A stretch of DNA of 64,000 nt from NCBI GenBank assembly GCA_035529315.1, contig DATKWZ010000030.1:67825-131824 (forward strand), in the 5' to 3' direction. How positions within the stretch are numbered: position 1 is the first letter of the stretch; each line of letters starts with the position of its first letter. Shown piece by piece: positions 1,869-31,118 of the stretch. This stretch comes from Anaerolineae bacterium. Its GTDB lineage: Bacteria; Desulfobacterota; Desulfobacteria; Desulfobacterales; ETH-SRB1. The notes below the pieces were generated by a model. That model saw only the letters and a program-made list of their open reading frames with translations. It had not been told where the DNA came from and did not search any database. A program made the translations under genes and the position numbers.

Positions 1869-1886
1869 TGGAAACAGGATAATATC

Positions 1887-3089
1887 ATGTCTGATAAAAT
1901 AAACAAGGTGGTTTTAGCCTATTCGGGCGGCCTTGATACATCAGTTATATTAAAATGGCTTATTGAGACATATGATTGCGAAGTGATCGCATTTTCAGCC
2001 GATTTAGGGCAGGAAGAGGAGCTTGATCATTTAGAAGAAAAAGCATTAAAGACCGGCGCTAAAGCGGTTTATATAGATGATCTTAAGGAGACCTTTGTTA
2101 AGGATTATGTATTTCCGGCTTTTCGCGCAAATGCCATTTATGAGCACCAGTATCTTTTAGGCACATCCCTTGCCAGACCCCTTATAGCGAAACGACAAAT
2201 TGAGATAGCGCAGATAGAAGGGGCGGACGCCGTAAGCCATGGAGCTACAGGAAAGGGGAACGACCAGGTACGATTTGAGCTGAGCTATCTTGCGCTTAAT
2301 CCAGGCATTAAAATCATTGCTCCATGGCGTGAATGGACGCTTAACTCTCGCTCATCCCTTATGGAGTTTGCAGAAAAACACGGCATACCTGTTCCGACAA
2401 CCCCGGCAAAACCTTATAGCTCTGACAGAAACCTCCTTCATATAAGTTACGAAGGCGGCGTGCTTGAAAATCCCTGGCAGGAACCGCCTGAGAATATGTT
2501 TACATTGACTGTTTCGCCAGAGAACGCGCCTGACAAGCCTGAAATAATTGAAATAATTTTTAAGGAGGGTGATCCGGTTGCAATAAACGGTAAAGAGCTG
2601 TCGCCGGCAAATCTGCTTAAGGAGCTAAACAGACTTGGCGGCCGTAACGGCATAGGCAGGGCAGATATAGTTGAAAACCGCTTTGTCGGCATGAAATCCC
2701 GTGGAGTATATGAAACCCCCGGTGGCACTATATTGAGGACAGCCCACATAGCGATTGAATCGATTACCATGGACAGAGAGATAATGCATCTCAGGGATTC
2801 TTTGATACCTAAATATTCTGAAATCATATATTATGGTTTCTGGTTTTCACCTGAGATGAAGCTTCTGCAGGCTATGATAGACCAGACCCAGCATAATGTT
2901 TCAGGGGTTGTGCGCTTAGAACTATATAAGGGAAACTGCCGTGTTCTTGGGCGCAAATCAGATCAATCCCTTTACAGTGAGGATTTTGCAACATTTGAAA
3001 AAGACAGTGTTTTCAGCCAGAAAGATGCCGAAGGCTTTATCCGCCTTAATGCACTAAGATTGCGTATTCAAAAAATGATGAATTCGTAA
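1887..3089 (+). CDS. argG: argininosuccinate synthase
   Basis: 400 aa with the [12 protein letters not shown]-pyrophosphatase motif and [15 protein letters not shown]. The last codons and the stop (..AAA ATG ATG AAT TCG TAA) lie inside the left end of a MITE-like repeat. Confidence 0.95.
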
Positions 3090-3234
3090 AAAGCCGAATT
3101 TACCACAGAGCACACGGAGACCACAGAGACAACTATTTGTAATTACCGGATAGCGCTAACACTTCACTACATGCCCGGCTTTTGCCAGAATGACGGAAAA
3201 GAGAACTTTTCGACTTTTTACGAAGTCATCAAGA
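3074..3234. repeat. MITE-like element, family 1 (long form)
   Basis: The terminal inverted repeats are AATGATGAATTCGTAAAAAGCC (left) and GACTTTTTACGAAGTCATCAAG (right). The internal core GGATAGCGCT..CTTCACTACATGCCCGGCTTTTGCCAGAATGACGGAAAA (3148-3200) closely matches 47346-47398. Confidence 0.75.
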
Positions 3235-3288
3235 TTTATTTCTCCAATTTTCAATCGACAATATTCAATTCTAATTAAGAGGTTATAT

Positions 3289-4686
3289 ATGACAGAAAAG
3301 CCATGGGGCGGCAGATTTTCAGAAAAAACAGATAGAGGCGTAGAGATTTTTACCTCTTCAATAGATGTGGATAAGCGGCTCTATGCTTATGATATTGAAG
3401 GCAGTATCGCTCATTGCAGTATGCTTGCAAAGGCGTCGATTATTACAGAAGAGGATTCTTCATCAATAATACAGGGCCTTAGCAATATAAAAAAGGAATT
3501 TGAGAGAGAAGAATTCCTGTTTGATGATGGTCTGGAGGATATCCATATGCATATTGAATCCAGACTTCTCCATGTGGTAGGAAAGGTTGCCCAGAAGCTT
3601 CATACAGCAAGGAGCCGTAATGATCAGGTGGCCCTGGATGTGCGTATGTACCTTAGAGATGAGACCGCAAAGATTATTAAAAGCCTCATTAATCTGAAAA
3701 AAGTTATTTTGTTATTTGCCAAGGCCAATATTGATACTATTTTGCCTGGATATACCCATCTGCAGAGAGCGCAGCCGGTGCTTTTGGCTCACCATACGAT
3801 GGCCTATTATGAGATGTTTTTGCGGGATGCGGACAGATTCAGGGACTGTCTGAAACGGATAAATGTAATGCCGCTCGGAAGCGGAGCCCTTGCCGGAACA
3901 ACATTTCAGATCGACAGAGATTACACGGCCAAGCTTCTTAAATTTAAAGAGGTGTCGAGAAACAGTATAGATTCGGTTTCAGACAGAGATTTTATCATTG
4001 AATTCTTATCAGCGGCAAGTATATGCATGATGCATTTCAGCCGCTTATCGGAAGAGGTTATTTTATGGTCCACATATGAGTTCGGTTTTATTGACCTTCC
4101 TGATTCATTTGCCACAGGAAGCAGTATCATGCCCCAAAAGAAAAACCCTGATGTTCCTGAACTGGTCCGCGGGAAAACCGGTCGTGTTTTTGGGAATCTG
4201 ATGGCCATTTTATCCATTATGAAATCATTACCGCTTGCCTATAATCGGGACATGCAGGAGGATAAAGAGCCTTTGTTTAATACGGTTGATATTTTAAAAG
4301 CCTGCATTGATATATATTCGTCGATGCTTCCCAAGCTGAAAATCAACAAAGAGACAATGCGTGAGGCCGCAACCAAAGGGTTTTTAAATGCAACAGATCT
4401 GGCTGATTATCTTGTGACCGCGGGAATGCCTTTTCGGCAGGCTCATACCTGCGCAGGCAAAGCAGTAAGCTATGCGCTGGACAATGATAAAGAACTGCAC
4501 GAACTTACATTAAAAGAGTTAAAACCTTTTTCAAGCCTGATTAAAAAGGATGTTTTTAATATTTTAAGCACAGATCAGATGATAAATCGCAGGACATCTT
4601 TTGGCGGAACCGCCAGAAAAAATGTTCTGGCTGCTATAAAGGCCGCTGAAAAGGGTCTTAATGCTGTGGAGCATGCTGATGAATAA
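3289..4686 (+). CDS. argH: argininosuccinate lyase
   Basis: The start is taken at ATG 3289 (MTEKPWGGRFSEK..), with AAGAGG upstream. The fumarate-lyase signature GSSIMPQKKNPD is present. The 33 extra codons of ORF 3190.. lie inside the MITE and are discarded. Confidence 0.9.
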   Translation: MTEKPWGGRFSEKTDRGVEIFTSSIDVDKRLYAYDIEGSIAHCSMLAKASIITEEDSSSIIQGLSNIKKEFEREEFLFDDGLEDIHMHIESRLLHVVGKVAQKLHTARSRNDQVALDVRMYLRDETAKIIKSLINLKKVILLFAKANIDTILPGYTHLQRAQPVLLAHHTMAYYEMFLRDADRFRDCLKRINVMPLGSGALAGTTFQIDRDYTAKLLKFKEVSRNSIDSVSDRDFIIEFLSAASICMMHFSRLSEEVILWSTYEFGFIDLPDSFATGSSIMPQKKNPDVPELVRGKTGRVFGNLMAILSIMKSLPLAYNRDMQEDKEPLFNTVDILKACIDIYSSMLPKLKINKETMREAATKGFLNATDLADYLVTAGMPFRQAHTCAGKAVSYALDNDKELHELTLKELKPFSSLIKKDVFNILSTDQMINRRTSFGGTARKNVLAAIKAAEKGLNAVEHADE

Positions 4687-5131
4687 AGGCTTTGTCAGAG
4701 GTTTGGCCGCAATAATATTTTTAATTCTGCTCTGCATTGTTGTTTTTCCCTTTGGATGCGGCAGAAAGACAGATCCTGTCCCTCCAGGTCAGGCCGGGCC
4801 GCCTGTGGTTGATAATTTAAATTCAAGTATAGACGGTGATATTCTCGAGCTTGCCTGGACCATTCCTGATGAAAAAGGGAAGATCGCATCAGGCTTGGGC
4901 GGTTTTATTGTATATAAATCAAAAACATCTCTTTCCGAGCCTGTCTGTGAAAAGTGTCCTGTGCGTTTTAAGAAAATTGCCGATATTCCTATTGTAGAAA
5001 AGGATATAAATAAAAAAATAACCTACAGGGAAACCCTGGAAAAGGGCTGCAGATATATCTATAAGGTAGCCGTTTATACAAAAACAGGAGCTTTTGGAAA
5101 AGACTCCAATTATATAGAACTTGACCACTAA
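4679..5131 (+). CDS. hypothetical exported protein / possible lipoprotein
   Basis: The N-terminus MNKGFVRGLAAIIFLILLCIVVFPFGCG looks like a signal peptide with a Cys after the hydrophobic core. No family was recognised. The start could be ATG 4661, 4673 or 4679. Confidence 0.5.
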   Translation: MNKGFVRGLAAIIFLILLCIVVFPFGCGRKTDPVPPGQAGPPVVDNLNSSIDGDILELAWTIPDEKGKIASGLGGFIVYKSKTSLSEPVCEKCPVRFKKIADIPIVEKDINKKITYRETLEKGCRYIYKVAVYTKTGAFGKDSNYIELDH

Positions 5132-5193
5132 CGGCTCAATGTCATTAATTCAGGCAATTTTATTATTAATCACCAGTAACGAGCAGCAATTTT

Positions 5194-6453
5194 ATGCATC
5201 ATTTTAATTATCGTGACAATGAACTCTATTGTGAAGATGTTCCGGTTCAAACCATCGCTCAAAAGGTCGGCACCCCTTTTTATTTATACAGTCATGCCAC
5301 ATTAAAGCGTCATTTTGTCACCTTTAACGATGCGTTTGACGGCATAAAACGGCTTGTCTGTTTTTCTGCAAAGGCAAATACCAGCCTTGCTGTTTTAAAA
5401 CTTTTTGCAGGTCTTGGAAGCGGCCTTGATATTGTTTCAGGAGGGGAACTCTATCGCGGATTAAAAGCCGGCTTTCAGCCCGATAGAATTGTCTATTCAG
5501 GCGTTGGAAAACGCATAGATGAGATCGACTACGCTCTTAATACAGGCATCATGATGTTTAACGTCGAATCTCTTGAAGAGCTTGAACTTATAAACAAAAG
5601 AGCCGGCTTTTTAAAATTGAGAGCTCCTGTTGCAATCCGGGTAAATCCTGATGTTGATCCCAAAACACATCCATATATTTCAACGGGTCTGAAAAAGAAT
5701 AAATTTGGTATTGACATTGAGACCGCGAGTGAATGCTACAAGGTTGCAAAGAGCTTAAAGAATATTAATGTAATAGGAATCGACTGTCATATCGGATCAC
5801 AGATTACCCAGGTGCAGCCTTTTGTAGATGCGCTGAAAAGCATCAAGGTGTTGATAAACAGACTGAAGGATTCGGGGATTGAAATAAGATACCTTGATAT
5901 AGGCGGTGGCCTTGGAATAACATATAATGATGAATCTCCTCCTGAGCTTAATGATTACGCGGGAGCAATAGTTAAGTCTCTTGAAGGGATGCCGCTTCAA
6001 CTTATTTTAGAGCCCGGCAGAGTCATTGTAGGAAATGCAGGGATACTGGTCACAAAAGTTCTTTATAGAAAATCAGGCAAAGACAAGGAGTTTATTGTCG
6101 TTGATGCGGGCATGAACGATCTGGCGCGTCCGAGCCTTTATAAAGCATTTCATGCGATTGAACCGGTTGTAAAGTCTGAAAATGAGCTGATAACAGCGGA
6201 TATTGTAGGGCCTATCTGTGAGAGTGGAGATTTCCTGGCCGCAGATCGCAGGATTTCTAATGTAAAGAGAGACGATCTTCTAGCGGTGATGAGCGCCGGC
6301 GCATATGGATTTACAATGTCGTCTAATTACTGTTCAAGGCTGCGCGTTGCCGAAGTTATGGTAAAGGACGACCGGTTTTATGTTGTAAAAAAACGCCAGG
6401 ATTATACTGACCTGATAGCAGGAGAATCGATACCGCCGTTTTTAGAAAATTAG
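5194..6453 (+). CDS. lysA: diaminopimelate decarboxylase
   Basis: 419 aa of the PLP decarboxylase family, with GPICESGDFLA near the C-terminus. It is adjacent to dapF. Confidence 0.9.
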   Translation: MHHFNYRDNELYCEDVPVQTIAQKVGTPFYLYSHATLKRHFVTFNDAFDGIKRLVCFSAKANTSLAVLKLFAGLGSGLDIVSGGELYRGLKAGFQPDRIVYSGVGKRIDEIDYALNTGIMMFNVESLEELELINKRAGFLKLRAPVAIRVNPDVDPKTHPYISTGLKKNKFGIDIETASECYKVAKSLKNINVIGIDCHIGSQITQVQPFVDALKSIKVLINRLKDSGIEIRYLDIGGGLGITYNDESPPELNDYAGAIVKSLEGMPLQLILEPGRVIVGNAGILVTKVLYRKSGKDKEFIVVDAGMNDLARPSLYKAFHAIEPVVKSENELITADIVGPICESGDFLAADRRISNVKRDDLLAVMSAGAYGFTMSSNYCSRLRVAEVMVKDDRFYVVKKRQDYTDLIAGESIPPFLEN

Positions 6454-6679
6454 AGACTTTGTAACACGTTAGTTCTTTAAACGGTAAGGGCCAAAATAAA
6501 TTTTTAAAGCGAAATATTATACCTTAAGCTTCGACAACGGCACCAACAACAAACATTAAGACAATACTTGAAACCACGTATGAGTTCAGTAAGTTATATA
6601 TCCTGTTATCCTGTCAGAGTCTTTTTCAAAAGGCTAAAATGTTACTCAACTTTTAGTTGAGCACTTCTTTCTTAAAATT

Positions 6680-7513
6680 ATGAAACATATTGAATTCTTT
6701 AAAGTAAGCGGCAGCGGAAACGATTTTATCATAATCGATAACAGGGACAGGATTATTGATGAAAAGAATCTGAAAAATTTTGTCGCAAATGTGTGCCGCA
6801 GAAAAATGTCTGTTGGCGCTGATGGATTAATATTGGTAGAAAAGTCTGGTTTGGTTGATTTTAAGTGGCGTTTTTTTAATTCTGACGGAAACCCTGCCGA
6901 GATGTGTGGAAACGGGGCAAGATGTGTTGCGCGTTTTGCATATTTAAACAGGATCGCCGGCCCTGAGATGTCATTTGAAACAGATGCGGGGATAGTTTCC
7001 GCACAGGTTACAAACCATCTGGTTAAGGTTAAGATGCCGGACCCTGTGAATCTTAAAGTCGATTATTCCATTGACCTTAAAAACGGGCCTTTGTTTATCA
7101 GCAGTGTTAATACCGGCGTTCCTCACGTGGTAATTATGCTTGACAGCATTGATGATATTGATGTTGTTAATCTTGGCAGGGAGATGCGGTTTCACGAGAG
7201 GTTTGCTCCTGCAGGAACAAATGTAAATTTCATATGCCCGCGGCAGGATGGCGTTATTGCCATACGGACTTATGAGCGCGGAGTCGAAGATGAAACCCTG
7301 GCATGCGGCACAGGTGCGGTAGCAGGGGCTCTTGTAACGGCAAAAAAGTCAAAAATCAAATCTCCTGTTAATATTAGAACTAAAAGCAGGCAGAATCTTT
7401 ATGTTTACTACAAGGAAAAGGAAGACATTTTTTACGATGTTTATCTTGAGGGGGATGCCCGCATTATTTACAGGGGAGAAGTTTATGAGGATGCCTGGAA
7501 GTTTGAGGAATAA
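6680..7513 (+). CDS. dapF: diaminopimelate epimerase
   Basis: 277 aa with SGNDF and the two catalytic-Cys contexts MCGNGARC and LACGTGAVA. Confidence 0.9.
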   Translation: MKHIEFFKVSGSGNDFIIIDNRDRIIDEKNLKNFVANVCRRKMSVGADGLILVEKSGLVDFKWRFFNSDGNPAEMCGNGARCVARFAYLNRIAGPEMSFETDAGIVSAQVTNHLVKVKMPDPVNLKVDYSIDLKNGPLFISSVNTGVPHVVIMLDSIDDIDVVNLGREMRFHERFAPAGTNVNFICPRQDGVIAIRTYERGVEDETLACGTGAVAGALVTAKKSKIKSPVNIRTKSRQNLYVYYKEKEDIFYDVYLEGDARIIYRGEVYEDAWKFEE

Positions 7514-10761: not shown

Positions 10762-10836
10762 GCGGGAGTAACTCAGTGGTAGAGTGCGACCTTGCCAAGG
10801 TCGAAGTCGCGGGTTCAAATCCCGTTTCCCGCTCCA
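10762..10836 (+). tRNA. tRNA-Gly (anticodon GCC)
   Basis: A cloverleaf was folded by hand: acceptor GCGGGAG/TTCCCGC, anticodon stem CGACC/GGTCG with loop TTGCCAA, T arm GCGGG-TTCAAAT-CCCGT, and an encoded CCA. Confidence 0.95.
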
Positions 10837-10861: not shown

Positions 10862-10936
10862 GGCGGCATAGCCAAGTGGTAAGGCAGCGGTCTGCAAAAC
10901 CGCTATTCATCAGTTCGAATCTGATTGCCGCCTCCA
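10862..10936 (+). tRNA. tRNA-Cys (anticodon GCA)
   Basis: Acceptor GGCGGCA/TGCCGCC, anticodon stem GCGGT/ACCGC with loop CTGCAAA, T arm ATCAG-TTCGAAT-CTGAT, and an encoded CCA. Confidence 0.95.
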
Positions 10937-11071
10937 CACAATTCAGCACATCTTTAGAAAATATCCAAGTATCAACCGCCCGCTTTGCTCAAGACGCAAA
11001 GATCGCAGAGAAAATAAATAATTATCCTCATTAAATTAAGGTTCGCCTGATAAACAGCGTTGCCTGTCTTT

Positions 11072-11093
11072 GCTTTTTACGAATCCATCAAAG
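11072..11093. repeat. solo right end of MITE family 1
   Basis: GCTTTTTACGAATCCATCAAAG matches the right-end consensus GACTTTTTACGAA-NNNRTCAA(A)G. Confidence 0.5.
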
Positions 11094-11201
11094 ATAACTC
11101 ATCGAAAAGACGGCAAATTAAATTGACTTGCATGTTCACATGATATACAGTGTTTCAAATTAATTTTGGTATGTTTTTGAACCTCAAACAAGGAGGATCA
11201 T

Positions 11202-11231
11202 GTGACCTGTAACTGGATTACAAAAAAATAA
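11202..11231 (+). other. 9-codon micro-ORF (GTG ACC TGT AAC TGG ATT ACA AAA AAA TAA) behind AGGAGG
   Basis: AGGAGG at 11191-11196 sits 5 nt before the GTG. The same arrangement is found in copy A' (60879-60908, minus strand; peptide MNNNWITKK versus MTCNWITKK). Whether it is translated is unknown. Confidence 0.25.
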
Positions 11232-11275
11232 AGCCCCATTTCTTTTAGCAACATGAAGGATGGGGCTTTTTGCTT
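11230..11275 (+). terminator. intrinsic-terminator-like hairpin inside module A
   Basis: AAAGCCCCAT..(loop)..ATGGGGCTTTTT. There is an A-run on the 5' side and a T-run on the 3' side, so it could act on either strand. Confidence 0.5.
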
Positions 11276-11419
11276 CACAACCCTGGATCTGAACCTCGAA
11301 CTGAAAAAGAACTTAGCTGCCCTCTTCCTCTGCGATACAAGCTGATAAACTTGAGAAGCATTCCATAAACAGCCCATTACATCCCTCTTAAAACTGTATT
11401 AAATACAGCAATACGATAT

Positions 11420-11475
11420 TATAAAGAAAATATATAGCGTTAATATGCAGATTTTTTTCTGCTTAATACAATACG
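11420..11475 (+). repeat. repeat module C (copy 1), possible recombination/docking site ending in G|TTA
   Basis: TATAAAGAAAATATATAGCGTTAATATGCAGATTTTTTTCTGCTTAATACAATACG is about 95% identical to the reverse complement of 61221-61274. The homology stops right after GTTA in both copies. Confidence 0.7.
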
Positions 11476-11511
11476 TTATAGGGCATGAACACCAAAACTT
11501 AAGGAGATAAA

Positions 11512-12552
11512 ATGACCGAAGAAACTAAACCAAAAAAGGCCAAAAGACCCAGCTCACCCAAGGTTCCTAATTACCCAAGGTCATCTATAGAAAAAGCTTT
11601 AAGAATTCCCAAAGGTATCTTGGAACAAAATGCAGGAAAACCGTGCACAGATGAGGAAACTGCAACTTATGTTGGAGTAAAGTACAACAAAGGGCCATAT
11701 GCAGTTGAGATTAACACTGCAATTAAATATGGATTAATTGAGCGCCCTGAATCCGGAAAATTACGGTTAACTGATATAGCTCGAAAGATTCTAAAACCTC
11801 AAGAAAGCAATGATTATCTGTCAGGTGTACAAGAAGCCGCTATGAAAGCCCCTGTGATCTCTGACATTTATACTCACTATCGCGGTGAAAACCTTCCAGA
11901 TATGGAATTTTTTGATAACGCATTAACTGATAAATTTAAAATTCCACAATCAAAGTTGAGTGAGTTTAAATCAATTTTCTTTGACACATTAACATTTGCA
12001 AAACTCATTACAGAACACGAAGGAAAATATCGGGTTGTAAATGCGTTAGAAGATGAAGGCGCTGGTCAAGCTAAAGCAAATAAAACCTTTAAAAAACTAG
12101 AACGATCAGTAAAGGTTAAATCTGATGATTCTTGCTTTGTTATGATGCCATTTGCTAACCCACTTGGCAGCTATTATGAAAAAATATATAAAACCGCTAT
12201 TGAGAAGGCAGGTTTAAAACCTATTCGTGCTGATGATGAATTATTTGGTACAGGAAAAATAATTGATCAAATTTGGGCAGGTATAAATTCAGCAAAGATT
12301 CTAATTGCTGAGCTTACCAGTAGAAACCCTAATGTGTATTATGAACTTGGTATAGCACATGCTCTAAAAAAACCTGTTGTTCTAGTTTCATCGAACGAAG
12401 AAGATGTTCCCTTTGATTTAAATCATATTCGAGTTATCTATTACGATGTAAACGATCCTTTTTGGGGGCAGAAATTAATTGACAAGGTTGCAGAGAATAT
12501 TCTTTCTGCAATTAAAAATCCCGAAGAGGCTATTTTTGATACCAAGGAATAA
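11512..12552 (+). CDS. hypothetical protein: N-terminal winged-helix-like region + C-terminal nucleoside 2-deoxyribosyltransferase-like (NDT/TIR-like Rossmann) domain
   Basis: 346 aa, with AAGGAG 7 nt upstream. The C-terminal 150 aa (CFVMMPF..ADDELFGTGKIIDQIWAGINSAKILIAELTSRNPNVYYELGIAHALKKPVVLV) follow the NDT pattern, including the conserved Glu in ..YELG... Confidence 0.6.
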   Translation: MTEETKPKKAKRPSSPKVPNYPRSSIEKALRIPKGILEQNAGKPCTDEETATYVGVKYNKGPYAVEINTAIKYGLIERPESGKLRLTDIARKILKPQESNDYLSGVQEAAMKAPVISDIYTHYRGENLPDMEFFDNALTDKFKIPQSKLSEFKSIFFDTLTFAKLITEHEGKYRVVNALEDEGAGQAKANKTFKKLERSVKVKSDDSCFVMMPFANPLGSYYEKIYKTAIEKAGLKPIRADDELFGTGKIIDQIWAGINSAKILIAELTSRNPNVYYELGIAHALKKPVVLVSSNEEDVPFDLNHIRVIYYDVNDPFWGQKLIDKVAENILSAIKNPEEAIFDTKE

Positions 12553-12556
12553 AAGC

Positions 12557-12643
12557 GCCCTATAACCAGACGCTTGAGGCCGACCGCGTGATCTTCATCG
12601 CGAATAGAAAAGTCGTGCGCGGCGGCTCAGCTTCACGTTGTGC
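12557..12643 (+). other. attC-like imperfect palindrome (integron cassette recombination site)
   Basis: The site starts 5 nt after the CDS stop. The R''-like box GCCCTATAAC lies at 12557-12566. The L''-like box GCTTGAG (12572-12578) pairs with CTCAGC (12626-12631). The stem continues as CCG(A)CCGCG/CGCGGCGG, leaving an unpaired T, G and A on the '' arm. The site ends in GTTGTGC (12637-12643, GTTRRRY-like). The R'' box is the exact reverse complement of GTTATAGGGC at 11475-11484. Confidence 0.55.
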
Positions 12644-12684
12644 AGTAAGCAAAGAATCATATTTATAAGGAGGAAAAAGGGGTT

Positions 12685-12888
12685 ATGGCAATTACGATGA
12701 AAAGGCAACTCAATGCTGAGGAAAAAGAGATCATTATAAAACGGCATGGCAGGAATTGTTTTGCGACTGGCCACCCCATCCCTGAGACTGAAAATGTTCA
12801 CTTTGATCACATAAAAGCGCATGCACTCGGAGGTCAATCTGATCTCGACAACATCGCACCGAAGAAAAGGGGGCAAGTTTGCCTTTGA
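12685..12888 (+). pseudogene. HNH endonuclease, 3'-truncated at a MITE boundary
   Basis: AGGAGG is followed by an ATG. The sequence ..RNCFATGHPI..VHFDHIKAHALGGQSDLDNIAP.. is an HNH core. After DNIAP the frame runs into the repeat end GGGGGCAAGTTTGCCTTTGA and stops, so the distal Cys/His part is missing. Confidence 0.55.
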
Positions 12889-13026
12889 CCCATGAAAGAC
12901 AATAAGAGACAAAAACCTTAATAACAGAAGAGTTTCGAAGCTTATAAAATACGACAGGAAAATTAAAAAACAGATAGGGAAAATACAAGACAGCATTAAT
13001 AAGGGTCAAAGGCAGACTTGACCCCC
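12869..13026. repeat. MITE-like element, family 2 (module B, copy 1)
   Basis: The 22-bp inverted ends are GGGGGCAAGTTTGCCTTTGACC (12869-) and GGGTCAAAGGCAGACTTGACCCCC (-13026). The whole 158 bp matches the reverse complement of 61014-61168. A solo end lies at 21247-21264. Confidence 0.75.
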
Positions 13027-13106
13027 TTTTTTTAGCTCGTTCTGAAAATGATTTATTTATAAGGGGAAATGAAATACAATAAACATTATAAACTTGAGGA
13101 AAATCT

Positions 13107-13784
13107 ATGCCAAAAATCAAAGACTTACCAAAACATAAGCGGCCCCGAGAAAAGCTGTCGGAAAAGGGAGCGGAGAATGTAAGCGATGCCGAGTTATTGG
13201 CAATCCTGATTCGTATCGGGCGGGCCGGTAAAAGCGCTTTGGATATTGCTAAGGAAACTTTGAAAAAATATCCCTTATCAAAACTTTTGGCAGTTTCAAT
13301 AGATGATCTGAAAGGTATTAAGGGGCTGGAAGATACCAAAGCCATTACGATCAAGGCGGCTTTGGAGCTTGGCAGTCGCGCGGTTGGTTCCTTTAATAAT
13401 TCTCTTCCCATCCTCGATTCCGTAAGAGACACGGTTGCCCAGCTTGCCGATTTGCGCGGTAAGCAAAAAGAATATTTTATGGTGCTGTATCTCAATGCTC
13501 GCAAGCAACTCATTCATAAAGAAACTATTTCTATAGGCACATTGACGGAAACACTGGTGCATCCACGCGAAGTTTTTGAACCGGCTATACGCCACTTTAC
13601 TTCTTCCATCATATTGGCGCACAATCATCCATCAAAAAACACGGAAGTGTCTGATGAGGATATCAAGCTAACTGAAAAATTGATCCAATCGGGCACGATT
13701 CTCGATATTGAAGTACTTGACCATATCATCATCACCGATGACGGTTATATCAGTTTTAAGGAAAAAGGATTACTTTTTAAGTAA
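13107..13784 (+). CDS. radC: RadC-family JAB-domain protein
   Basis: 225 aa with the N-terminal KRPREKL..SDAELLAILIRIG and the JAB motif AHNHPSKNTEVSDEDIKLT. Confidence 0.85.
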   Translation: MPKIKDLPKHKRPREKLSEKGAENVSDAELLAILIRIGRAGKSALDIAKETLKKYPLSKLLAVSIDDLKGIKGLEDTKAITIKAALELGSRAVGSFNNSLPILDSVRDTVAQLADLRGKQKEYFMVLYLNARKQLIHKETISIGTLTETLVHPREVFEPAIRHFTSSIILAHNHPSKNTEVSDEDIKLTEKLIQSGTILDIEVLDHIIITDDGYISFKEKGLLFK

Positions 13785-13793: not shown

Positions 13794-15884
13794 ATGTCAC
13801 AACTGGAAAATATAGAAGCAATAGAGAAAAGACTCTGGAGCGCGGCGGATACGCTCCGGGCAAATTCCAATTATGCAAGCAATGAATATTTTATGCCGGT
13901 AATGGGATTGGTTTTCTTGCGCCATGCCTACAGCCGGTATTTGGCGGTAAAAGATGAAATCATTGCCAGCCTGCCGATGCGCGGGGGCAAAACCCCGGCG
14001 TTGACAAAAAAGGATTTCAGCAAAAAATCCGCTATTTTTCTACAGCCCAAAGCTCAATTTGATTATCTCGTAGCTCTCAAAGACAGCGATGATCGCGCCA
14101 AGGCAGTTATTGATGCAATGGAATCAATTGAAGAAGATTATGACACTCTGCGCGGCGTGTTGCCCAAAAAAGAATATCGTGAATTGGATAATGAAATATT
14201 GGGCCAACTGCTGCGGGGGTTGAATCCTGAAGAACTTAAAAAAGTATCCGGCGATGTATTTGGAAGAATTTATGAATATTTTCTCACACAGTTCGCTGAT
14301 CAAAAAGCGCATGACGGCGGCGAGTTTTTTACGCCGGTATCCTTGGTAGCACTCATTGCCAATGTGCTGGAACCCAAAAAAGGAACAGTGCTGGATATAG
14401 CCTGCGGCAGCGGCGGGATGTTTGTTCAGAGTGCGCGTTTTGTAGAAAATCTGCACGAAAATCCAAACGATAAATTGAGCTTTTATGGTCTGGAGAAAAA
14501 CGCCACCACGATCAACCTGGCAAAAATGAATCTGGCGGTGCATGGCTTGGTGGGTGATATCAAAAAAGCGATTACCTACTATGAAGACCCGCATAATCTG
14601 TATAAGAAAGCCGACTTTTTGATGGCCAATCCGCCGTTTAATGTGGATGAAATTGATGCCGACAAAATCAAAAACGATCCCCGTTTGCCTTTTGGCCTGC
14701 CCGGAGTGAATAAGAAAGGCAAAGTCAGCAACGGCAACTATGTCTGGATCAGTTATTTTTACAGTTACTTGACCGAACAAGGCAGGGCTGGATTTGTAAT
14801 GTCGTCCCAGGCGTCAAGTGCAGGCAACACTGAAGCCAAAGTGCGGGAGAAGCTGATTGAGACCGGTCATGTGGATATCATGATCGCAATCCGATCAGGC
14901 TTTTTTTATACACGTACTGTTCCATGTGAGCTTTGGTTCTTTAATAAATCTAAACCGGAGAATCTAAAAGATAAGGTACTGATGATCGATGCGCGGAATG
15001 TTGCTCGTAAACTAAAGGGAAGCAGGAAAATTTGGGAATTTTCACCGGAGCAATTGCAAAATATTCTTTCCATCGTATGGCTTTATCGGGGTGAGACGAA
15101 GCGTTTTCATCACTTGGTAGTGAATTATATTTCCGCCACGATTAATGAAGCCGTGCAAAGCATCGCTCCGGCACGAGACTATGAAACTATTTTTACCAAA
15201 TTAAATAAAGAGATTCAACCATTTATGGCTACACTTGCTAAAGGCGGGAAACAAGCAGAAACAGTTAAAGAGTTAGCCGACTGTCTGAAAGACTACACCA
15301 GCGGAAGTCAGGCATTTGCCAAGTTGGCGCAAGAAAAAACCGCCTGGTGGAAAAAGCAAAATAAAGACACTATTAAACTTGCCGCAGCGCTCAAAGAATT
15401 GGAACCACTCGCAGAGGAAAACAATAAGCTAATTAAAGAAGCCGAACTGATGTATCGGCTCGCCAACCGTTTGATTGATGTGTGCCTCAATACCCACAAC
15501 TCCAAAGATAGCGACAAGTGGAATACGCGAGAAATTGCCATCCTCAAAAAACAAACCGAAGCGGCGCGCGACACAGCGGTAGAACAACTTAAATTAGCCC
15601 GCTATTTTCATCACCAAGCGCAGTGGCTCATCGAGCGATTCCCGGAAGGAAAACTCCGCGATGTGGAAGGGTTGGTGAAGCTGGTGGATAAAGCCGAACT
15701 GAAAGAAAACGACTGGAGCCTGACCCCGGGCAGGTATGTGGGCGTAGCACCGGAGGAGGAAGACCCGGATTTTGACTTTGGTGAAACCATGCGCACTATT
15801 CATACCGAGCTGGAAGGCCTGAACGCCCAAGCTGTCGATTTAGCAAAAAAAATTAGTGAAAATTTTAAGAAGATAGAGATATGA
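13794..15884 (+). CDS. hsdM: type I restriction-modification system, methyltransferase subunit
   Basis: 696 aa with the AdoMet motif VLDIACGSGGM and catalytic LMANPPFNV. A helical K/E/A-rich segment of about 190 aa precedes the conserved C-terminal ..NDWSLTPGRYVG. Confidence 0.9.
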   Translation: MSQLENIEAIEKRLWSAADTLRANSNYASNEYFMPVMGLVFLRHAYSRYLAVKDEIIASLPMRGGKTPALTKKDFSKKSAIFLQPKAQFDYLVALKDSDDRAKAVIDAMESIEEDYDTLRGVLPKKEYRELDNEILGQLLRGLNPEELKKVSGDVFGRIYEYFLTQFADQKAHDGGEFFTPVSLVALIANVLEPKKGTVLDIACGSGGMFVQSARFVENLHENPNDKLSFYGLEKNATTINLAKMNLAVHGLVGDIKKAITYYEDPHNLYKKADFLMANPPFNVDEIDADKIKNDPRLPFGLPGVNKKGKVSNGNYVWISYFYSYLTEQGRAGFVMSSQASSAGNTEAKVREKLIETGHVDIMIAIRSGFFYTRTVPCELWFFNKSKPENLKDKVLMIDARNVARKLKGSRKIWEFSPEQLQNILSIVWLYRGETKRFHHLVVNYISATINEAVQSIAPARDYETIFTKLNKEIQPFMATLAKGGKQAETVKELADCLKDYTSGSQAFAKLAQEKTAWWKKQNKDTIKLAAALKELEPLAEENNKLIKEAELMYRLANRLIDVCLNTHNSKDSDKWNTREIAILKKQTEAARDTAVEQLKLARYFHHQAQWLIERFPEGKLRDVEGLVKLVDKAELKENDWSLTPGRYVGVAPEEEDPDFDFGETMRTIHTELEGLNAQAVDLAKKISENFKKIEI

Positions 15885-17035
15885 AAACAAGTCAAAAATC
15901 GAAATTAGGTCATATTTGTACAATCAGAACAGGCAAGCTTGATTCTAATGCTGCTGTTGAAGGCGGCAAATACCCTTTTTTTACTTGTGCTCAAGAAACA
16001 TTCAGTATAGATAAATTCGCATTCGATACAGAGGCGGTGTTACTTGGAGGAAACAATGCTAATGGGATATTTCCACTAAAATATTATCAAGGGAAGTTTA
16101 ATGCGTATCAAAGGACTTACATTATAGAATCAAAAGATAGGAATAAAGTATTAAACAAATTTGTTTATTTCTCTCTTCGCCCCGTTTTAGAGTATTTCAA
16201 AAGTGCTTCAATAGGAGCTGCAACGCAGTATTTAACAAAACCGGTGCTGGACAATTTAAAAATTACTTTGCCAGATATTGACACTCAGCGAAGCATTATT
16301 GACATTGTATATGCCTACGACGACCTTATCTACACCAACCGCCGACGGATACAGCTTTTGGAAGAATCGGCGCGGCTATTATTCCGCGAGTGGTTTGTGT
16401 ATTTCCGCTTTCCGGGATATGGAAAAGTAAAGATAGTCGATGGCGTGCCGGATGGGTGGGAGAAAGAAAAGATAAATACCCTCGTTTCTCTTTTGGGAGG
16501 CCATGCATTTAAAGGCACATCATATCAACAAGAGGGTAAGTACGGAATTGTAACTATAAAAAATGTTCAGCAAGGCAGTTTTATTCCTCAATGCACTGAT
16601 TACTTGGACGACACCCCAAATGCAATGAGAAAACATTGTTTTTTATCTAATGGCGATATTTTAATGTCTCTTACGGGCAATGTTGGAAGAGTCTGTTTAG
16701 TATATGGTGAGAACTTTTTACTAAACCAACGCGTAGCAAAAATCGAATCGAAAAACAAATTACCTAAAAGCTATATTTATTGGATGTTTGATAGCCCAAC
16801 AATGCAAAAGAGAATTGAAAATTTATCTTATGGTTCCGCTCAGCAAAATTTGAGCCCCATTAAGCTTGGAGAGCAAAAGGTAATTCTTCCACCCGATCCA
16901 TTGCTTGAGTCGTTTGATGAAATATTTAGTTTGATAAATAGTGAGATAATCCAGCTATTAATTCAAAACCAAAAACTCGCCCAAGCCCGTGATTTGCTTT
17001 TGCCGCGGCTGATGAGCGGCGCGATTGAGGTATGA
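15881..17035 (+). CDS. hsdS: type I restriction-modification system, specificity subunit
   Basis: 384 aa. Two variable halves are separated by the conserved ..LLEESARLLFREWFVYFRFPG.., and the protein ends ..LAQARDLLLPRLMSG. The start overlaps the hsdM stop. Confidence 0.85.
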   Translation: MKTSQKSKLGHICTIRTGKLDSNAAVEGGKYPFFTCAQETFSIDKFAFDTEAVLLGGNNANGIFPLKYYQGKFNAYQRTYIIESKDRNKVLNKFVYFSLRPVLEYFKSASIGAATQYLTKPVLDNLKITLPDIDTQRSIIDIVYAYDDLIYTNRRRIQLLEESARLLFREWFVYFRFPGYGKVKIVDGVPDGWEKEKINTLVSLLGGHAFKGTSYQQEGKYGIVTIKNVQQGSFIPQCTDYLDDTPNAMRKHCFLSNGDILMSLTGNVGRVCLVYGENFLLNQRVAKIESKNKLPKSYIYWMFDSPTMQKRIENLSYGSAQQNLSPIKLGEQKVILPPDPLLESFDEIFSLINSEIIQLLIQNQKLAQARDLLLPRLMSGAIEV

Positions 17036-17085
17036 AATGATGAGCTGTGAACACTTGATATTATTTCTTTATTTTGGGGGAGGGT

Positions 17086-17961
17086 ATGTCGGATAAACAT
17101 TTGGTATCAATGGGAAGCAAGTCTTTTGAAGACCTGAAGAAAATAAATGAATATGGAGCGGAATATTGGAGCGCGCGGGAGATTCAGCCTCTTTTGGGAT
17201 ATACGCAATGGAGGAGATTTGAAGACGCCGTTAAAAGGGCAATAACATCTTGTAAAAATTCAGGGAATGAACCTCGCTATCACTTTGCCGGCGCCGGCAA
17301 ACCGATAGAGGGTGGAAAAGGTGCAGTGCAATTGGTTAATGACTACCATCTGTCCCGATTTGCCTGTTATTTGATTGCTCAGAATGGAGATCCTCGCAAA
17401 CCTGAAATCGCAAATGCTCAAAAATATTTTGCAATTCAGGCGCGCAGACAGGAAATTTCTGATGCCGTTACTGCCGATTTAGAACGGTTGGAGCTTCGCA
17501 AACAGACCGCTGAGGAGTTTAAAGCCCTGTCGGGCGCAGCGCGGGAAGCAGGGGTTCATGACAAGATGTTTGGTGTTTTTCATGATGCAGGATATAAAGG
17601 GATGTACGGTGGTATGGGGCGTGACGCCATTAAGCGATTTAAAAGGATACCCGAAAAAGAAAATCTGATGGACAGGATGGATACAACCGAACTTGCTGCA
17701 AACCAGTTCCGCATGACCCAGACGCGTGACAAGCTGGCGCGCGAACGGATAAGGGATCAACAGGCTGCCATACGAACCCATGAAAGTGTAGGCAAGGAGG
17801 TTAGAGACGCTATCAAACGTATCGGTGGAACACCTCCTGAGCATTTACCTCCTGCCGAACATATAAAGCTTGTCGAGAAAAGGGTAAAGGGTGTACCTCC
17901 AAAGCTGGAACTGGAAGAAAAAGACGCCAAAGGGCTGATCGGGCATTCGGAAGAGGAATGA
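17086..17961 (+). CDS. dinD: DNA-damage-inducible protein D-like (DinD/BRO-N-type) protein
   Basis: MSDKHLVSMGSKSFEDLKKINEYGAEYWSAREIQPLLGYTQWRRFEDAVKRA.. resembles DinD. ATG 17086 has GGGGGAGGG just upstream. The gene sits between hsdS and hsdR. Confidence 0.7.
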   Translation: MSDKHLVSMGSKSFEDLKKINEYGAEYWSAREIQPLLGYTQWRRFEDAVKRAITSCKNSGNEPRYHFAGAGKPIEGGKGAVQLVNDYHLSRFACYLIAQNGDPRKPEIANAQKYFAIQARRQEISDAVTADLERLELRKQTAEEFKALSGAAREAGVHDKMFGVFHDAGYKGMYGGMGRDAIKRFKRIPEKENLMDRMDTTELAANQFRMTQTRDKLARERIRDQQAAIRTHESVGKEVRDAIKRIGGTPPEHLPPAEHIKLVEKRVKGVPPKLELEEKDAKGLIGHSEEE

Positions 17962-17964
17962 GTT

Positions 17965-20900
17965 ATGACCTACTTGAACGAAGATACATTGGTCCAGCAA
18001 ACAACCGTCGATTACTTAAAAGATAAACTCGGTTGGGATTCGGTGTATGCCTATAATCAGGAAACTTTTGGACAGGATGGTCTTTTGGGGAGAAAATCCG
18101 ATCGTGAAGTGGTACTCATACGATATCTCAGGCACGCTCTTAAAGAACTCAATCCAGGACTTCCCGAAACCGCATACGACGAGGCAGTACGACAAGTTGT
18201 AAATTATTCCCAGAGCCAGTCAATGCTCTCTTCCAACTATGATAAATACAAACTGTTCAAAGATGGTGTGCTGGTTTCTTTTCAGGGAGAACATGGCGAG
18301 ATAAAAAAGGAACGGCTCAAGATTTTTGATTTTAATGAAGCGATAAGAAATCACTTTTTGACGGTCCGGGAATTGTGGGTACAGGGTGATTTATATCGAC
18401 GTCGGATTGACATCGTCGGGTTTGTAAACGGCATCCCGTTGTTGTTCGTTGAATGCAAAAACATACATAAAGACCTTAAAAACGCTTACGCAAAAAACTT
18501 TGCCGATTACAAAGACACTATCCCGCATTTTTTTCATCATAATGCTATTATTATGCTGGCAAACGGCGAAAAAGCAAAAATCGGCACTATTACTGCCGGT
18601 TATGAGCATTTTCATGAGTGGAAGCGCTTGTCCGAATCCGACCCGGGCGTGGTGGATATGGAAACACTTTTAAAAGGTGTTTGCGATAAAAAGAATTTCA
18701 TGGATATTTTTGAAAACTTCATCATCTATGACGATTCCACCGGCAGGCAGATAAAAGTTCTGGCGAAAAACCATCAGTATCTTGGCGTGAATCAGGTTAT
18801 CAAAGCCCTTCATGATCCCGGAAGAGTCAAAGGAAAACTCGGCGTTTTCTGGCATACGCAAGGCGCCGGGAAAAGTTATTCGATGGTGTTTTTTACCGCC
18901 AAAGTGCACCGTAAAATCGGCGGTAATTATACATTTTTAATCTGCACAGATCGCGAGGACCTGGATACCCAAATATATAAAACCTTTGCCGGATGTGGTG
19001 TGGCTGATAATGATAAAAATCCTTGCCGCCCCGGTAGTGGTAAACACTTGGCCGAACTGATGACGCAGCACAAAGCCTATCTGTTTACAACAATACAAAA
19101 ATTCAATCAGGATGTAGATCCGGGTGAGGGATATACCAAACGCGATGACATTATTGTAATTACTGACGAAGCGCATCGCACTCAATACGGCGCGTTGGCC
19201 TTGAATATGCGCAATGCTCTGCCGAATGCCAACTTTATCGGATTTACGGGAACACCGCTATTTAAAGACGATCAAATCACCATGCAGGTCTTTGGTGATT
19301 ATGTTTCCACTTACGATTTTCAGCGTGCCGTGGAAGATAAATCTACGGTCCCGCTCTATTATGACTCGCGTGGCGACACCTTGGGTGTAGCCACGAACGA
19401 TATTAATGAGCGCATCGCCGAAAAACTGGAACAGATTGAAATTAATGATATTGATGTAAGTCAGAGGCTGCAAAAAGAACTCAAGCGTGATTACCATATC
19501 ATTACGGCGAAAAAGAGGCTCAATCAAATCGCCAGGGATTTTGTCTATCACTACACCACTTCCTGGGAAGCAGGCAAGGCGATGTTTATATGCATCGATA
19601 AATTAACCTGTGTGCGGATGTATGAATTGATAAGGCAATACTGGGATCAGAAAGAAGAGGAAATAGAAGAATCCTGGAAAATGGCCGCAGGGGAAGAAAA
19701 GGATTATCTTTCCAATCAGCTCATCTGGATGAAAGAGACAAAGATGGCGGTGATTGTGAGTGAAGAGCAAGGCGAGGTCGACAAGTTCAAAAAATGGGGT
19801 TTTGATATCATATCTCATCGGCGGCTTATTAAAAATGGCTTTGAACTTTCCGATGGAAAACGAATTGATGTGGATTCCGCTTTTAAGAAAGAAGAACATC
19901 CATTTAGAATCGCGATAGTCTGCGCTATGTGGTTAACCGGGTTTGATGTGCCGAGTCTGGCAAACCTTTATTTGGACAAACCGCTCAAAGCCCATACGCT
20001 GATGCAGGCGATTGCCCGTGCCAACAGGGTAAACGGCGATAAAAATAACGGCCTTATTATTGATTATTGCGGTATCCTCAAAAATTTACGCAAAGCTCTC
20101 GCTACTTTCACCGGTACAGGCGATACCGGCAGACCCGGTGGATTGGGGCCGGATGAACTGGATCCAACCAGAACTAAAGAAGAATTACTCGAAGGATTAA
20201 AACAAGCGATTGGCCTGGTAAGCGATTTTCTTAATGAGCGAAAAGCGCCTCTTGATGCAATCATCAACGCGAGCGGTTTTGAGAGAAACAAGGCGATTGT
20301 CGCGGCTAAAGAAGCGGTGAACGAAAATGATGAAACCAGAAAGAAGTTTGAGGTAATGTGCCGCGAAGTGTTTATTAAATTTAAAGCGTGCCTGACAATT
20401 CCTGGTGTAAATACTTATCGCAACCAATACAGCGCAATAAATATCATCTACAAAAGCCTGCAAAAAGACCGAGATAAAGCGGATATCAGCGATATCATTA
20501 AACAGCTTCATGAAGTTATCGATGAGTCGATAACCGTTACACCCGACAGAGGCAAAGAACCCAACAAGGCTTATGATATCAGCAAAGTTGACTTTAACCG
20601 GTTGCGGGCGGAATTTGAACACGCTAAAACAAAAAACACCACTGTTCAAAGCCTGAAAAGCGTGATTGAGAAAAAACTGGCACGGCTCATCCAAAGAAAT
20701 CCGCTCCGGACAGATTTTCAGGAACATTATGAAAAGATAATCAATGAGTACAATAAAGAAAAAGACCGCCAGAATATTGAGGCCACCTTTGAGGCATTGT
20801 TGAAATTTGTGCAAGAGTTGGACGAGGAAGAAAGCCGAGCAGTGCGAGAGGGATTGAATGAGGAGACGCTGGCTATATATGACCTTTTGATAAAAACAGA

Positions 20901-21183
20901 TTTGAAATCTCAGGAAATCCAAAAGATAAAGAAGGTAGCCAAAGAACTGCTAAAAACACTGAAAGCAAAATTGAAGTATCTGTATAGGTGGCAAGACAAG
21001 GAGCCTACAAGAGATGATGTGAAAGTATTAATACGAAATTTCTTATGGGATGAAGCTGGCGGTTTGCCTGTGGCGTTTTATACTCAAAACGATGTATATA
21101 AAAAGGCCGAAGATGTTTATTATCATGTCTATCGGGCATATCCGACTGTCCCATCGCCATATTATGCAAGCGCGGGTAATTGA
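17965..21183 (+). CDS. hsdR: type I restriction enzyme, endonuclease/helicase subunit
   Basis: 1072 aa with helicase motif I WHTQGAGKS, the DEAH box VITDEAHRTQYG and motif VI QAIARANR. Confidence 0.9.
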   Translation: MTYLNEDTLVQQTTVDYLKDKLGWDSVYAYNQETFGQDGLLGRKSDREVVLIRYLRHALKELNPGLPETAYDEAVRQVVNYSQSQSMLSSNYDKYKLFKDGVLVSFQGEHGEIKKERLKIFDFNEAIRNHFLTVRELWVQGDLYRRRIDIVGFVNGIPLLFVECKNIHKDLKNAYAKNFADYKDTIPHFFHHNAIIMLANGEKAKIGTITAGYEHFHEWKRLSESDPGVVDMETLLKGVCDKKNFMDIFENFIIYDDSTGRQIKVLAKNHQYLGVNQVIKALHDPGRVKGKLGVFWHTQGAGKSYSMVFFTAKVHRKIGGNYTFLICTDREDLDTQIYKTFAGCGVADNDKNPCRPGSGKHLAELMTQHKAYLFTTIQKFNQDVDPGEGYTKRDDIIVITDEAHRTQYGALALNMRNALPNANFIGFTGTPLFKDDQITMQVFGDYVSTYDFQRAVEDKSTVPLYYDSRGDTLGVATNDINERIAEKLEQIEINDIDVSQRLQKELKRDYHIITAKKRLNQIARDFVYHYTTSWEAGKAMFICIDKLTCVRMYELIRQYWDQKEEEIEESWKMAAGEEKDYLSNQLIWMKETKMAVIVSEEQGEVDKFKKWGFDIISHRRLIKNGFELSDGKRIDVDSAFKKEEHPFRIAIVCAMWLTGFDVPSLANLYLDKPLKAHTLMQAIARANRVNGDKNNGLIIDYCGILKNLRKALATFTGTGDTGRPGGLGPDELDPTRTKEELLEGLKQAIGLVSDFLNERKAPLDAIINASGFERNKAIVAAKEAVNENDETRKKFEVMCREVFIKFKACLTIPGVNTYRNQYSAINIIYKSLQKDRDKADISDIIKQLHEVIDESITVTPDRGKEPNKAYDISKVDFNRLRAEFEHAKTKNTTVQSLKSVIEKKLARLIQRNPLRTDFQEHYEKIINEYNKEKDRQNIEATFEALLKFVQELDEEESRAVREGLNEETLAIYDLLIKTDLKSQEIQKIKKVAKELLKTLKAKLKYLYRWQDKEPTRDDVKVLIRNFLWDEAGGLPVAFYTQNDVYKKAEDVYYHVYRAYPTVPSPYYASAGN

Positions 21184-30551: not shown

Positions 30552-31118
30552 ATGGATTGTCTTGATATCATAAGTGAATATTACGAACAGGGCACCGTGC
30601 TGTATGAAATTCTCATACAGCACGGTGAAAATGTTGCAAAAAAGGCTCTTGATACAGCTAAAAATGTATCCCACCTAAATCCTGATCTTGATTTTATACA
30701 GCATGCCGCCATGCTCCATGACATCGGCATCTTCCTTACAAATATGCCAAAGCTGGGTTGTACTGGTAAACATCCTTATATATGTCACGGGTATCTGGGA
30801 CGCAACCTGCTGGAAAACAAAGGCATGCCCGAACTCGCGCTTGTATGTGAGCGGCATGTAGGCGTTGGAATAACGCCCGAAGATATAAGACATTATAACC
30901 TTCCGCTTCCTGAACGTAATATGGAACCTGTCTCAATAGAGGAACAGATTATATGCTATGCTGACAAGTTTTATTCCAAAAACAATGATTTTATCGCAAA
31001 GGAAAAATCTGTTGAAGATATCAAGCTCCTTCTTGAGCAATATGGTCATGATAAGGTTATGAAATTTCAGTCATGGGTTGATATGTTTGAAGGAGGTTCA
31101 GGTGTCAAAGCTGTTTGA
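30552..31118 (+). CDS. HD-domain phosphohydrolase
   Basis: 188 aa with ..AAMLHDIGIF.. and ..CERHVGVG... Confidence 0.7.
   Translation: MDCLDIISEYYEQGTVLYEILIQHGENVAKKALDTAKNVSHLNPDLDFIQHAAMLHDIGIFLTNMPKLGCTGKHPYICHGYLGRNLLENKGMPELALVCERHVGVGITPEDIRHYNLPLPERNMEPVSIEEQIICYADKFYSKNNDFIAKEKSVEDIKLLLEQYGHDKVMKFQSWVDMFEGGSGVKAV

Follow-up and report, generated by a model that had tools for sequence, protein, structure and literature searches.

A probable integron gene cassette joined to a conserved attI-like module in a decayed chromosomal integron

Can a stretch of DNA that carries one gene, ends in an imperfect palindrome and has no integrase gene close by still be recognised as an integron gene cassette, and what kind of site received it? 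This question is raised by a locus in a metagenome-assembled genome (MAG) labelled Anaerolineae (assembly GCA_035529315.1, contig DATKWZ010000030.1, positions 67,825 to 131,824); the 64,000 nt analysed here are called the window, and an earlier note, made from the letters of the window only, had proposed an integron-type cassette followed by an attC-like site. All the sequence features described in that note were found where it had placed them, and its reading is supported: we put at close to nine in ten the probability that the 1162 bp at 11476-12637 (+), from the TT of the attI/cassette junction to the G of the R' box, are a gene cassette inserted by an integron integrase (IntI) that recombined the bottom strand of an attC site with an attI site, the repeated sequence here called module C, at G|TT. 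The gene of this cassette (11512-12552, +) encodes a 346-aa protein (GenBank HUV50509.1) with a helical, winged-helix-like N-terminal part and a C-terminal domain that resembles nucleoside 2-deoxyribosyltransferase (NDT) and TIR domains. The locus is a decayed sedentary chromosomal integron, consisting of an attI, one intact cassette and a second cassette cut by a miniature inverted-repeat transposable element (MITE), with intI lost, and the element is a well-supported case of a known type, not something new.

The attC sites described by Nivina et al. (2016, PMC5027507) carry two or three extrahelical bases on the AAC arm of the top strand, with a 6-bp stem separating the first from the last of them and the middle one optional; read on the bottom strand, the first of these bases is usually G and the last T, the spacers are 5-6 nt long and unpaired, and total lengths range from 57 to 141 bp (PMC5027507). 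The 87-bp imperfect palindrome at 12557-12643 (+), delimited by its architecture and by a covariance model match, can be read in the same terms. It opens with the R'' box GCCCTATAAC (12557-12566, +; core CTATAAC at 12560-12566) and the unpaired 5-nt spacer CAGAC (12567-12571), followed by a 5' arm, GCT[T]GAG[G]CCG[A]CCGCG (12572-12588), which forms 14 perfect base pairs with the 3' arm CGCGGCGGCTCAGC (12618-12631) across a variable loop of 29 nt (12589-12617), and closes with the second 5-nt spacer TTCAC (12632-12636) and the R' box GTTGTGC (12637-12643), in which the crossover would fall at G12637|T12638. The three extrahelical bases T12575, G12579 and A12583 all lie on the AAC arm, spaced 3 + 3 bp, and the paired arms, 5-nt spacers and unpaired T, G and A that had been claimed for this palindrome are thus confirmed. 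The site resembles VCR2 of the Vibrio cholerae superintegron and attC_oxa2 (PMC5027507) in having three extrahelical bases on the AAC arm separated by 3 bp and 3 bp, R''/R' boxes built on AAC/GTT, 5-nt spacers, a T as the last extrahelical base of the bottom strand, a length of 87 bp and a position directly after a promoterless-looking open reading frame (ORF). As judged from its letters, 12557-12643 has the canonical architecture of an attC.

A covariance model, R1, was built from 36 attC sites in integron arrays of other genomes, those fetched for encoding relatives of the 346-aa protein, with no window sequence included. The 36 sites align well at both ends and share a common structure (a 7-bp R pairing, a spacer, 3 bp, one unpaired base, 6 bp, an unpaired A and at least 6 bp); 83% of the alignment cells are paired versus 60% after shuffling, and the covariation score of 0.52, versus 0.17 for shuffled alignments, collapses once the partner columns are slid. 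Run with filters off over the whole window, R1 returned one significant match, a full-length hit of 31.1 bits at 12560-12643 (+) that begins 7 nt past the stop codon of the 346-aa gene, with the runner-up at 11.2 bits. Across 1.19 Mb of other loci, 75 of 76 R1 matches were on the strand of the homologous gene and the best opposite-strand match reached 21.3 bits, so the 31 bits obtained in the window stand above the empirical noise. A simple score combining AAC...GTT with arm pairing ranks the site third in the window, after the ordinary palindromes 30582-30639 and 22101-22242; this score is strand-blind and was therefore used solely for collecting the training sites.

Module C copy 1, attI-like, occupies 11393-11478 (+), with a nearly invariant core at 11419-11478 and a crossover at G11475|T11476, and copy 2 lies at 61218-61275 (-), 97% identical to copy 1 and with a 31-nt internal deletion 5' of the core relative to the metagenome contig L092. 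As the earlier note had observed, the two copies are near-identical and then become unrelated; it placed the crossover at G|TT, with which the two copies are compatible, although they share ...CAATA(C)GTTA and so place the break within GTTA without resolving it to the base. An exact-pattern scan of metagenome contigs found three further copies, in L090, L091 and L092, and L094 has a diverged orthologue beside a related IntI. Identity of the core is 97-100% for window copy 2, L090, L091 and L092, and the core is recognisable in L094. Counting both window copies and those of the four contigs, all six are near-identical up to ...CTGCTTAATACAATAC and end at CAATA(C)|GTT, where six different sequences begin at the same GTT: GTTATAGGGC... 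in window copy 1, GTTAGCCACAGG... in window copy 2, GTTAGCAGTTT... in L090 (an ATPase gene), GTTATATTC... in L091 (a small gene with an attC of 40 bits), GTTGGGCAT... in L092 (BrnT/BrnA-like genes with attCs of 17.6 and 52.7 bits) and GTTAGACAT... in L094 (a T5orf172 gene). After copy 2 in the window, what follows is the first 44 nt of a cassette (TTAGCCACAGG..., 61177-61220, -), cut by the second MITE copy.

Module C is also linked to intI. L092 and L093 both carry a 179-aa piece of IntI, covering positions 1-120 of TIGR02249, that is encoded on the opposite strand and begins some 100 nt upstream of the crossover, and in L094 a fragment of 220 aa (TIGR02249 positions 1-191) lies about 100 nt from module C. 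Since it is a conserved site about 100 nt from intI that ends in GTT and is joined to different cassettes, module C can be recognised as an attI, by its sequence and setting that of an environmental integron lineage. It behaves like attI1, attI2, attI3 and VchattIA in its distance of about 100 nt from the start of intI, in the GTT core that joins cassettes and in being lineage-specific; unlike them, it has no sequence similarity to known attI sites. Repeated TTAA(A)TAC motifs within it are candidate IntI binding sites. A promoter scan of module C gave nothing convincing.

These same data speak against an alternative explanation, namely that IntI inserted an isolated cassette at an ordinary attG site containing GTT and that module C is a mere dispersed repeat. 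Insertions of this kind are documented and common in genomes (bioRxiv 10.1101/2022.09.11.507474), and they would account for a window with one attC and no intI. They sit badly with a 60-nt module of which six copies each bear a different cassette at one and the same GTT and which adjoins intI fragments in L092, L093 and L094 and a 10-codon remnant at window copy 2; such recurrent use together with linkage to intI is how an attI behaves and a random attG does not, and we regard the attG explanation as improbable and largely refuted. The locus does share with single attC sites lacking an integrase (SALIN), which IntegronFinder distinguishes from clusters of attC sites lacking an integrase (CALIN) (PMC4889954; bioRxiv 10.1101/2022.09.11.507474), its one attC-bearing cassette and the lack of intI nearby. 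It differs from both categories in that its 5' junction is an attI and that an intI stub survives at the second attI copy, which points to an origin by decay of the platform and not by insertion at an attG. The description of the locus in the earlier note as CALIN-like or orphan therefore holds for an integrase-less cassette, but not for CALIN, as there is a single attC, nor for a random orphan, as there is an attI; with --calin-threshold 1, IntegronFinder would be expected to report the site as SALIN.

Elsewhere, too, integron integrases and attC sites accompany the gene. The 346-aa protein has 2906 database relatives, the best 120 of which are 63-100% identical to it and which, over many phyla, show identities of 60-90%, and a pattern scan of GTDB reference genomes confirmed at least 581 relatives in more than 10 phyla. 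Of 80 reference-genome loci, 15 have an attC immediately behind the gene (R1 match beginning at most about 60 nt from the stop codon). In L084 (Ca. Thiodiazotropha), a divergent integron integrase of 321 aa (TIGR02249, 481.9 bits against a cut-off of 265) is followed by an attC of 41.2 bits ending in ...GAGCTTAAAC|GTTATAGGGCAC and then by an 88%-identical gene, and in L009, a Thermodesulfovibrionales MAG, the gene is the first cassette after an intact IntI (370.8 bits), with an attC of 49 bits behind it. The gene is also part of long arrays in L046, L045, L050 and L056, with 17 attC sites about 500 bp apart in L050 and 12 sites downstream of the IntI gene in L046. A DNA search of the 80 homologue loci found neither the window's palindrome nor its upstream region, homology stopping at the coding sequence below 80% DNA identity. 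From this distribution the 346-aa family is, on sequence evidence, a recurrent integron cassette.

The ends of the unit obey the rule of such arrays. In L046 and L050 the R' of one site complements the R'' of the next (for example GTTCTGC then GCAGAAC), and in L091 and L092 the R'' of the first cassette (AATATAAC, GCCCAAC) complements the 5' end at the junction (GTTATATT, GTTGGGC). In the window, the hybrid core site GTTATAGGGC at the attI junction (11475-11484, +) and the R'' box GCCCTATAAC (12557-12566) are exact reverse complements over 10/10 positions and the sole two occurrences in the window, whereas the R'' box pairs with the present R' at 4/7 positions. An exact 10-mer inverted match between flanks of about 100 nt would be expected by chance about 0.01 times (91x91/4^10). 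Stronger evidence than this calculation is the persistence of both 10-bp boxes, unchanged and with their positions preserved, around the genes of L084 and L087, which are 88-90% identical, and the complementarity claimed in the earlier note is thereby confirmed, unique in the window and kept in two other contexts. Among the window, L084-86 and L087-88, which are the three nearest contexts, homology begins exactly at GTTATAGGGC, the sequences to the left being unrelated, and the more distant L007 (ends GTTATAGG/CCTATAAC) and L012 (ends GTTATAGC/GCTATAAC) keep the complement rule and carry full attC sites of 55 and 54 bits. The cassette 5' end is thus the complement of its own R'', as expected of a circularising unit, and the predicted junction of the circle is ...TTCACG|TTATAGGGC..., with ...CAATACG|TTGTGCAGTAAGC... 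as the predicted empty site.

A pair of complementary ends could also delimit a small non-autonomous transposable element, with GTTATAGGGC and GCCCTATAAC as 10-bp terminal inverted repeats and the palindrome as unrelated flanking DNA. It is indeed from repeat to repeat, exactly, that homology of the window, L084 and L087 extends before it stops, and in L084 and L087 no attC can be detected past the right repeat. We find this explanation hard to sustain, however, as transposase and target-site duplication are both absent (flanks AATAC/CAGAC, TAAAC/ACATA and AAGAC/AAAGC), the left repeat coincides with the attI core in the window and with the R' of the 41.2-bit attC in L084 (at ...AAAC|GTTATAGGGC), and in the distant L007 and L012 the matching ends come with a full attC. 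That the palindrome is a terminator or other regulatory hairpin, with the 10-bp complement due to chance or to pairing of the 5' and 3' untranslated regions, fits its usual terminator position 5 nt past the stop codon but is scarcely credible, because there is no T-run after the stem, the terminator scan of the + strand at 12553-12650 was empty, the RNA fold is unremarkable (z = -0.1), the strand-specific attC model matches and conservation of the gene in other contexts does not extend to the palindrome.

The absence of an attC behind the gene in L084 and L087 belongs with several points that weigh against the reading proposed here. Homology with these two loci ends right after R'', so that the 3' boundary agrees up to R'' only, and no attC was detected after their gene by R1 with filters off. 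Within the window, tblastn with an integron integrase found no intI (E <= 1e-3), in agreement with the earlier note; what the window holds is neither a complete integron in the IntegronFinder sense (intI within reach of at least one attC) nor a CALIN (at least two attC sites without intI), R1 having given one attC match in the 64 kb. The model itself is home-made, not the attc_4 of IntegronFinder, and its training sites were chosen by a pairing heuristic; the E-value of the window match, 1.7e-5, rests on a shortened calibration, and 31 bits ranks low among sites in real arrays, which score 24-74 bits. The R boxes, which had been described as RYYYAAC- and GTTRRRY-like, have the AAC and GTT triplets but fit the full consensus only in part, deviating outside the triplets, and this sets the site apart from VCR2 and attC_oxa2, as does its first extrahelical base, which on the bottom strand is A in place of the usual G. 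The last base is T, as expected, so that the extrahelical bases agree with known sites in position and spacing and, in part, in identity; among the 36 aligned environmental attC sites the first extrahelical base is mostly C. The folding energy of 12545-12660 was no better than that of shuffled sequences for top-strand DNA (z -1.7), bottom-strand DNA (z -0.9) or RNA, so that thermodynamics alone gives the site no support, nor does the bottom-strand fold suggested as a check. A search of Rfam returned noise only, with no attC-like family at gathering thresholds in the whole window or at E <= 10 in 11000-13200.

Set against these points, the three outcomes that the earlier note had named as able to overturn its proposal (a covariance model score below threshold, no other attC or intI, and relatives in which the palindrome is kept only as a terminator without a boundary at GTT) all came out in its favour: R1, trained on other genomes, has its sole window match here and on the gene's strand, integron integrases and attC arrays accompany the gene family in other genomes, and related loci have a cassette boundary exactly at GTT, at the start of the unit in L084 and L087 and at the module C joins of L090, L091, L092 and L094.

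The R'' box GCCCTATAAC is retained past the stop codon in L084 (2801-2901) and L087 (1757-1901) without an attC, and in L087 a GTT lies 5 nt after R'' (AACAAAGCGTT), as if the body of the hairpin had been deleted. It is an oddity that the pair formed by R'' and the 5' end appears to move with the gene across phyla, and that the hairpin body appears to resemble the other cassettes of the host lineage. With its closest relatives the window cassette has the R''/5'-end pair alone in common and not the hairpin body, an unexplained and mildly new observation.

As module C is taken to be the attI of a chromosomal integron lineage, the window locus is a decayed integron and not a random orphan insertion, and the second attI copy retains part of the missing integrase gene. 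At 61277-61314 (+), with an ATG at 61288, an intI 5' remnant encodes MGYKRKHVKN, then runs into unrelated sequence and a stop; it is 89% identical in DNA to L092 834-871, in which the reading frame starts MAYKREHVKE and continues as IntI. Copy 2 thus keeps the promoter-proximal sequence and the first 10 intI codons, homology being lost 150 nt before rdgB, which starts at 61473. Truncation is not confined to this genome: the best 120 relatives of the L092 IntI fragment are all of 231 aa or less, versus about 320 aa for a full IntI, and no intact cognate IntI for module C was found among them. The cut points differ, at 179 aa in L093, 220 aa in L094 and 10 codons in the window, and the core genes that follow differ as well (yidD, an AsnC-like gene and rdgB). 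These observations point to a putative integron clade with a decayed integrase and yet a conserved attI; clade-wide truncation of intI and the presence of two attI copies in one genome are apparently mildly new.

At window copy 1 the full 85-nt attI region is preceded not by intI but by module A, of about 210 nt (11122-11329, +), which lies upstream of the attI where intI would be expected; the arrangement is the same in L091 (module A at about 956-1199), and a second window copy of module A lies at 60782-60988 (-). Module A, spacer and attI are collinear between the window and L091 with 82% identity over 364 nt. Module A contains a promoter-like TTGACT-17-TACAGT (11123-11151), a 9-codon ORF (11202-11231; V/M-TCNWITKK, with copy 2 encoding MNNNWITKK) and a hairpin with a T-run at about 11232-11272, and Rfam gave sub-threshold matches only (Phe_leader, 22 bits; rimP, 25 bits). 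Its letters suggest an attenuator with a leader peptide or a gene for a tiny peptide.

Sedentary chromosomal integrons with an inactivated integrase occur, for example, in Xanthomonas. The window locus resembles integrons of this kind (bioRxiv 10.1101/2025.06.18.660453) in lying beside core genes (tRNA-Cys and rdgB), in its truncated or deleted intI and in cassettes of unknown-function, toxin-antitoxin or defence type, and differs from them in its lineage (a MAG labelled Anaerolineae), in its two inverted attI copies 50 kb apart and in having module A instead of intI at one of them. The two copies were also considered as the ends of a single island spanning 11-61 kb; this was rejected, as 22.7-55 kb carries core genes (metK, ahcY, panC, lnt, prfB, pheST and formate dehydrogenase), and the copies are thus two separate inverted loci.

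A history consistent with this layout would begin with a circular cassette recombining with the attI at G|TT, in a reaction catalysed by IntI in which the attC takes part as a folded bottom strand and the attI as double-stranded DNA; the integrase would have acted while intI was still present locally, or from another place in the genome. A second cassette, encoding an HNH endonuclease, would have followed the first, later to be truncated by the MITE with removal of its attC, and with intI deleted the first cassette would now be immobile unless IntI is supplied in trans.

From left to right, the locus contains tRNA-Gly (10762-10836), tRNA-Cys (10862-10936), module A, module C, the 346-aa ORF, the palindrome, the HNH ORF with the MITE, and then RadC and the genes beyond it. 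Only the start of the second cassette is present (12638-12860, +), its own attC missing; its HNH-endonuclease ORF (12685-12888, +; Pfam HNH, E 5e-4) is interrupted at 12861 by the MITE-like element of 175 bp (module B copy 1, 12861-13035, +), which cuts the array short and whose boundaries were taken from its inverted repeats, 30-nt terminal repeats at 12862-12891 and 13003-13032. The other copy of module B lies at 61003-61176 (-); the two are 83-88% alike, and each is inserted just 3' of an attI copy. RadC (13107-13784) is followed by a type I restriction-modification system, with hsdM at 13794-15884, hsdS at 15881-17035 and hsdR at 17965-21183, a gene for a Bro-N protein (17074-17961) lying between hsdS and hsdR, and a gene for an AAA_14/DUF4143 ATPase also follows RadC and these genes. 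In L001 and L002, other assemblies of the window locus, hsdM is split into two gene calls (517 + 161 aa). L002 (ERZ27256827:k141_2474244, 1-7454) matches the window without a difference from position 10762, where tRNA-Gly begins, rightwards and has an unrelated, GC-richer left part; it was considered as another insertion context, for which this identity makes it uninformative, and is probably a chimeric metagenome assembly formed at the conserved tRNA.

Elsewhere in the window, a cyclic di-GMP-I riboswitch (RF01051, 70.2 bits) lies at 39952-40036 (-), upstream of the gene at 38837-39868. A Y1 transposase gene (IS200-like/RAYT-like, 56123-57097, -) is flanked by 47-nt inverted repeats (56095-56141 and 57138-57184) and adjoins a GC-rich block (57-60 kb, 50-55% GC) encoding FecR- and TPR-domain proteins. 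An intergenic motif pair, ...GATGAATTCGTAAAAAG... with the inverted partner ...GACTTTTTACGAA..., occurs at three or four loci (3061-3232, 47258-47430, 51879-51913 and 52638-52739), and a similar motif, ...CTTTTTACGAATCC..., is found at 11080, just after tRNA-Cys.

The match of the cassette protein to PF05014 (nucleoside 2-deoxyribosyltransferase) in Pfam is below the cut-off at 24 bits, and that to the TIR effector of PADLOC is weak (E 4.9e-7). The AlphaFold model (mean predicted local distance difference test score, pLDDT, 79) has a C-terminal flavodoxin-like domain, for which Foldseek gave NDT, DNPH1 and BcmB N-glycosidases as best matches and, more weakly, the TIR domain of SPARTA, and the N-terminal helical part aligns loosely with helix-turn-helix (HTH) regulators. 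It is a reasonable guess that the protein could be a defence or toxin-type effector, perhaps targeting nucleotides or NAD. Anti-phage systems are known cargo of integron cassettes (bioRxiv 10.1101/2024.07.02.601719; PMC12614218), and, with defence genes (RadC and type I restriction-modification) adjoining, this makes the 346-aa protein a reasonable candidate for testing.

The accepted integron model is unchanged by these findings, and the signature of an attC and its cassette was readable from the raw sequence. What is mildly new is an attI with its crossover point defined, belonging to an environmental integron lineage in which truncation of the integrase is usual. Between the window and L091 the collinear platform of module A, spacer and attI is 82% identical overall, yet its 60-nt attI core shows 100% conservation and is joined to different first cassettes, and it is conceivable, though we think it rather unlikely, that attI sites of the lineage stay in use without an adjacent integrase, their cassettes exchanged by IntI acting in trans; if so, one genome would hold several docking sites served by a single remote or transiently acquired IntI. 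For the gene family, the findings describe a highly conserved protein, with a winged HTH-like part and an NDT/TIR-like part, that recurs as an integron cassette in Planctomycetota, Acidobacteriota, Verrucomicrobiota, Nitrospirota, Desulfobacterota and Gammaproteobacteria.

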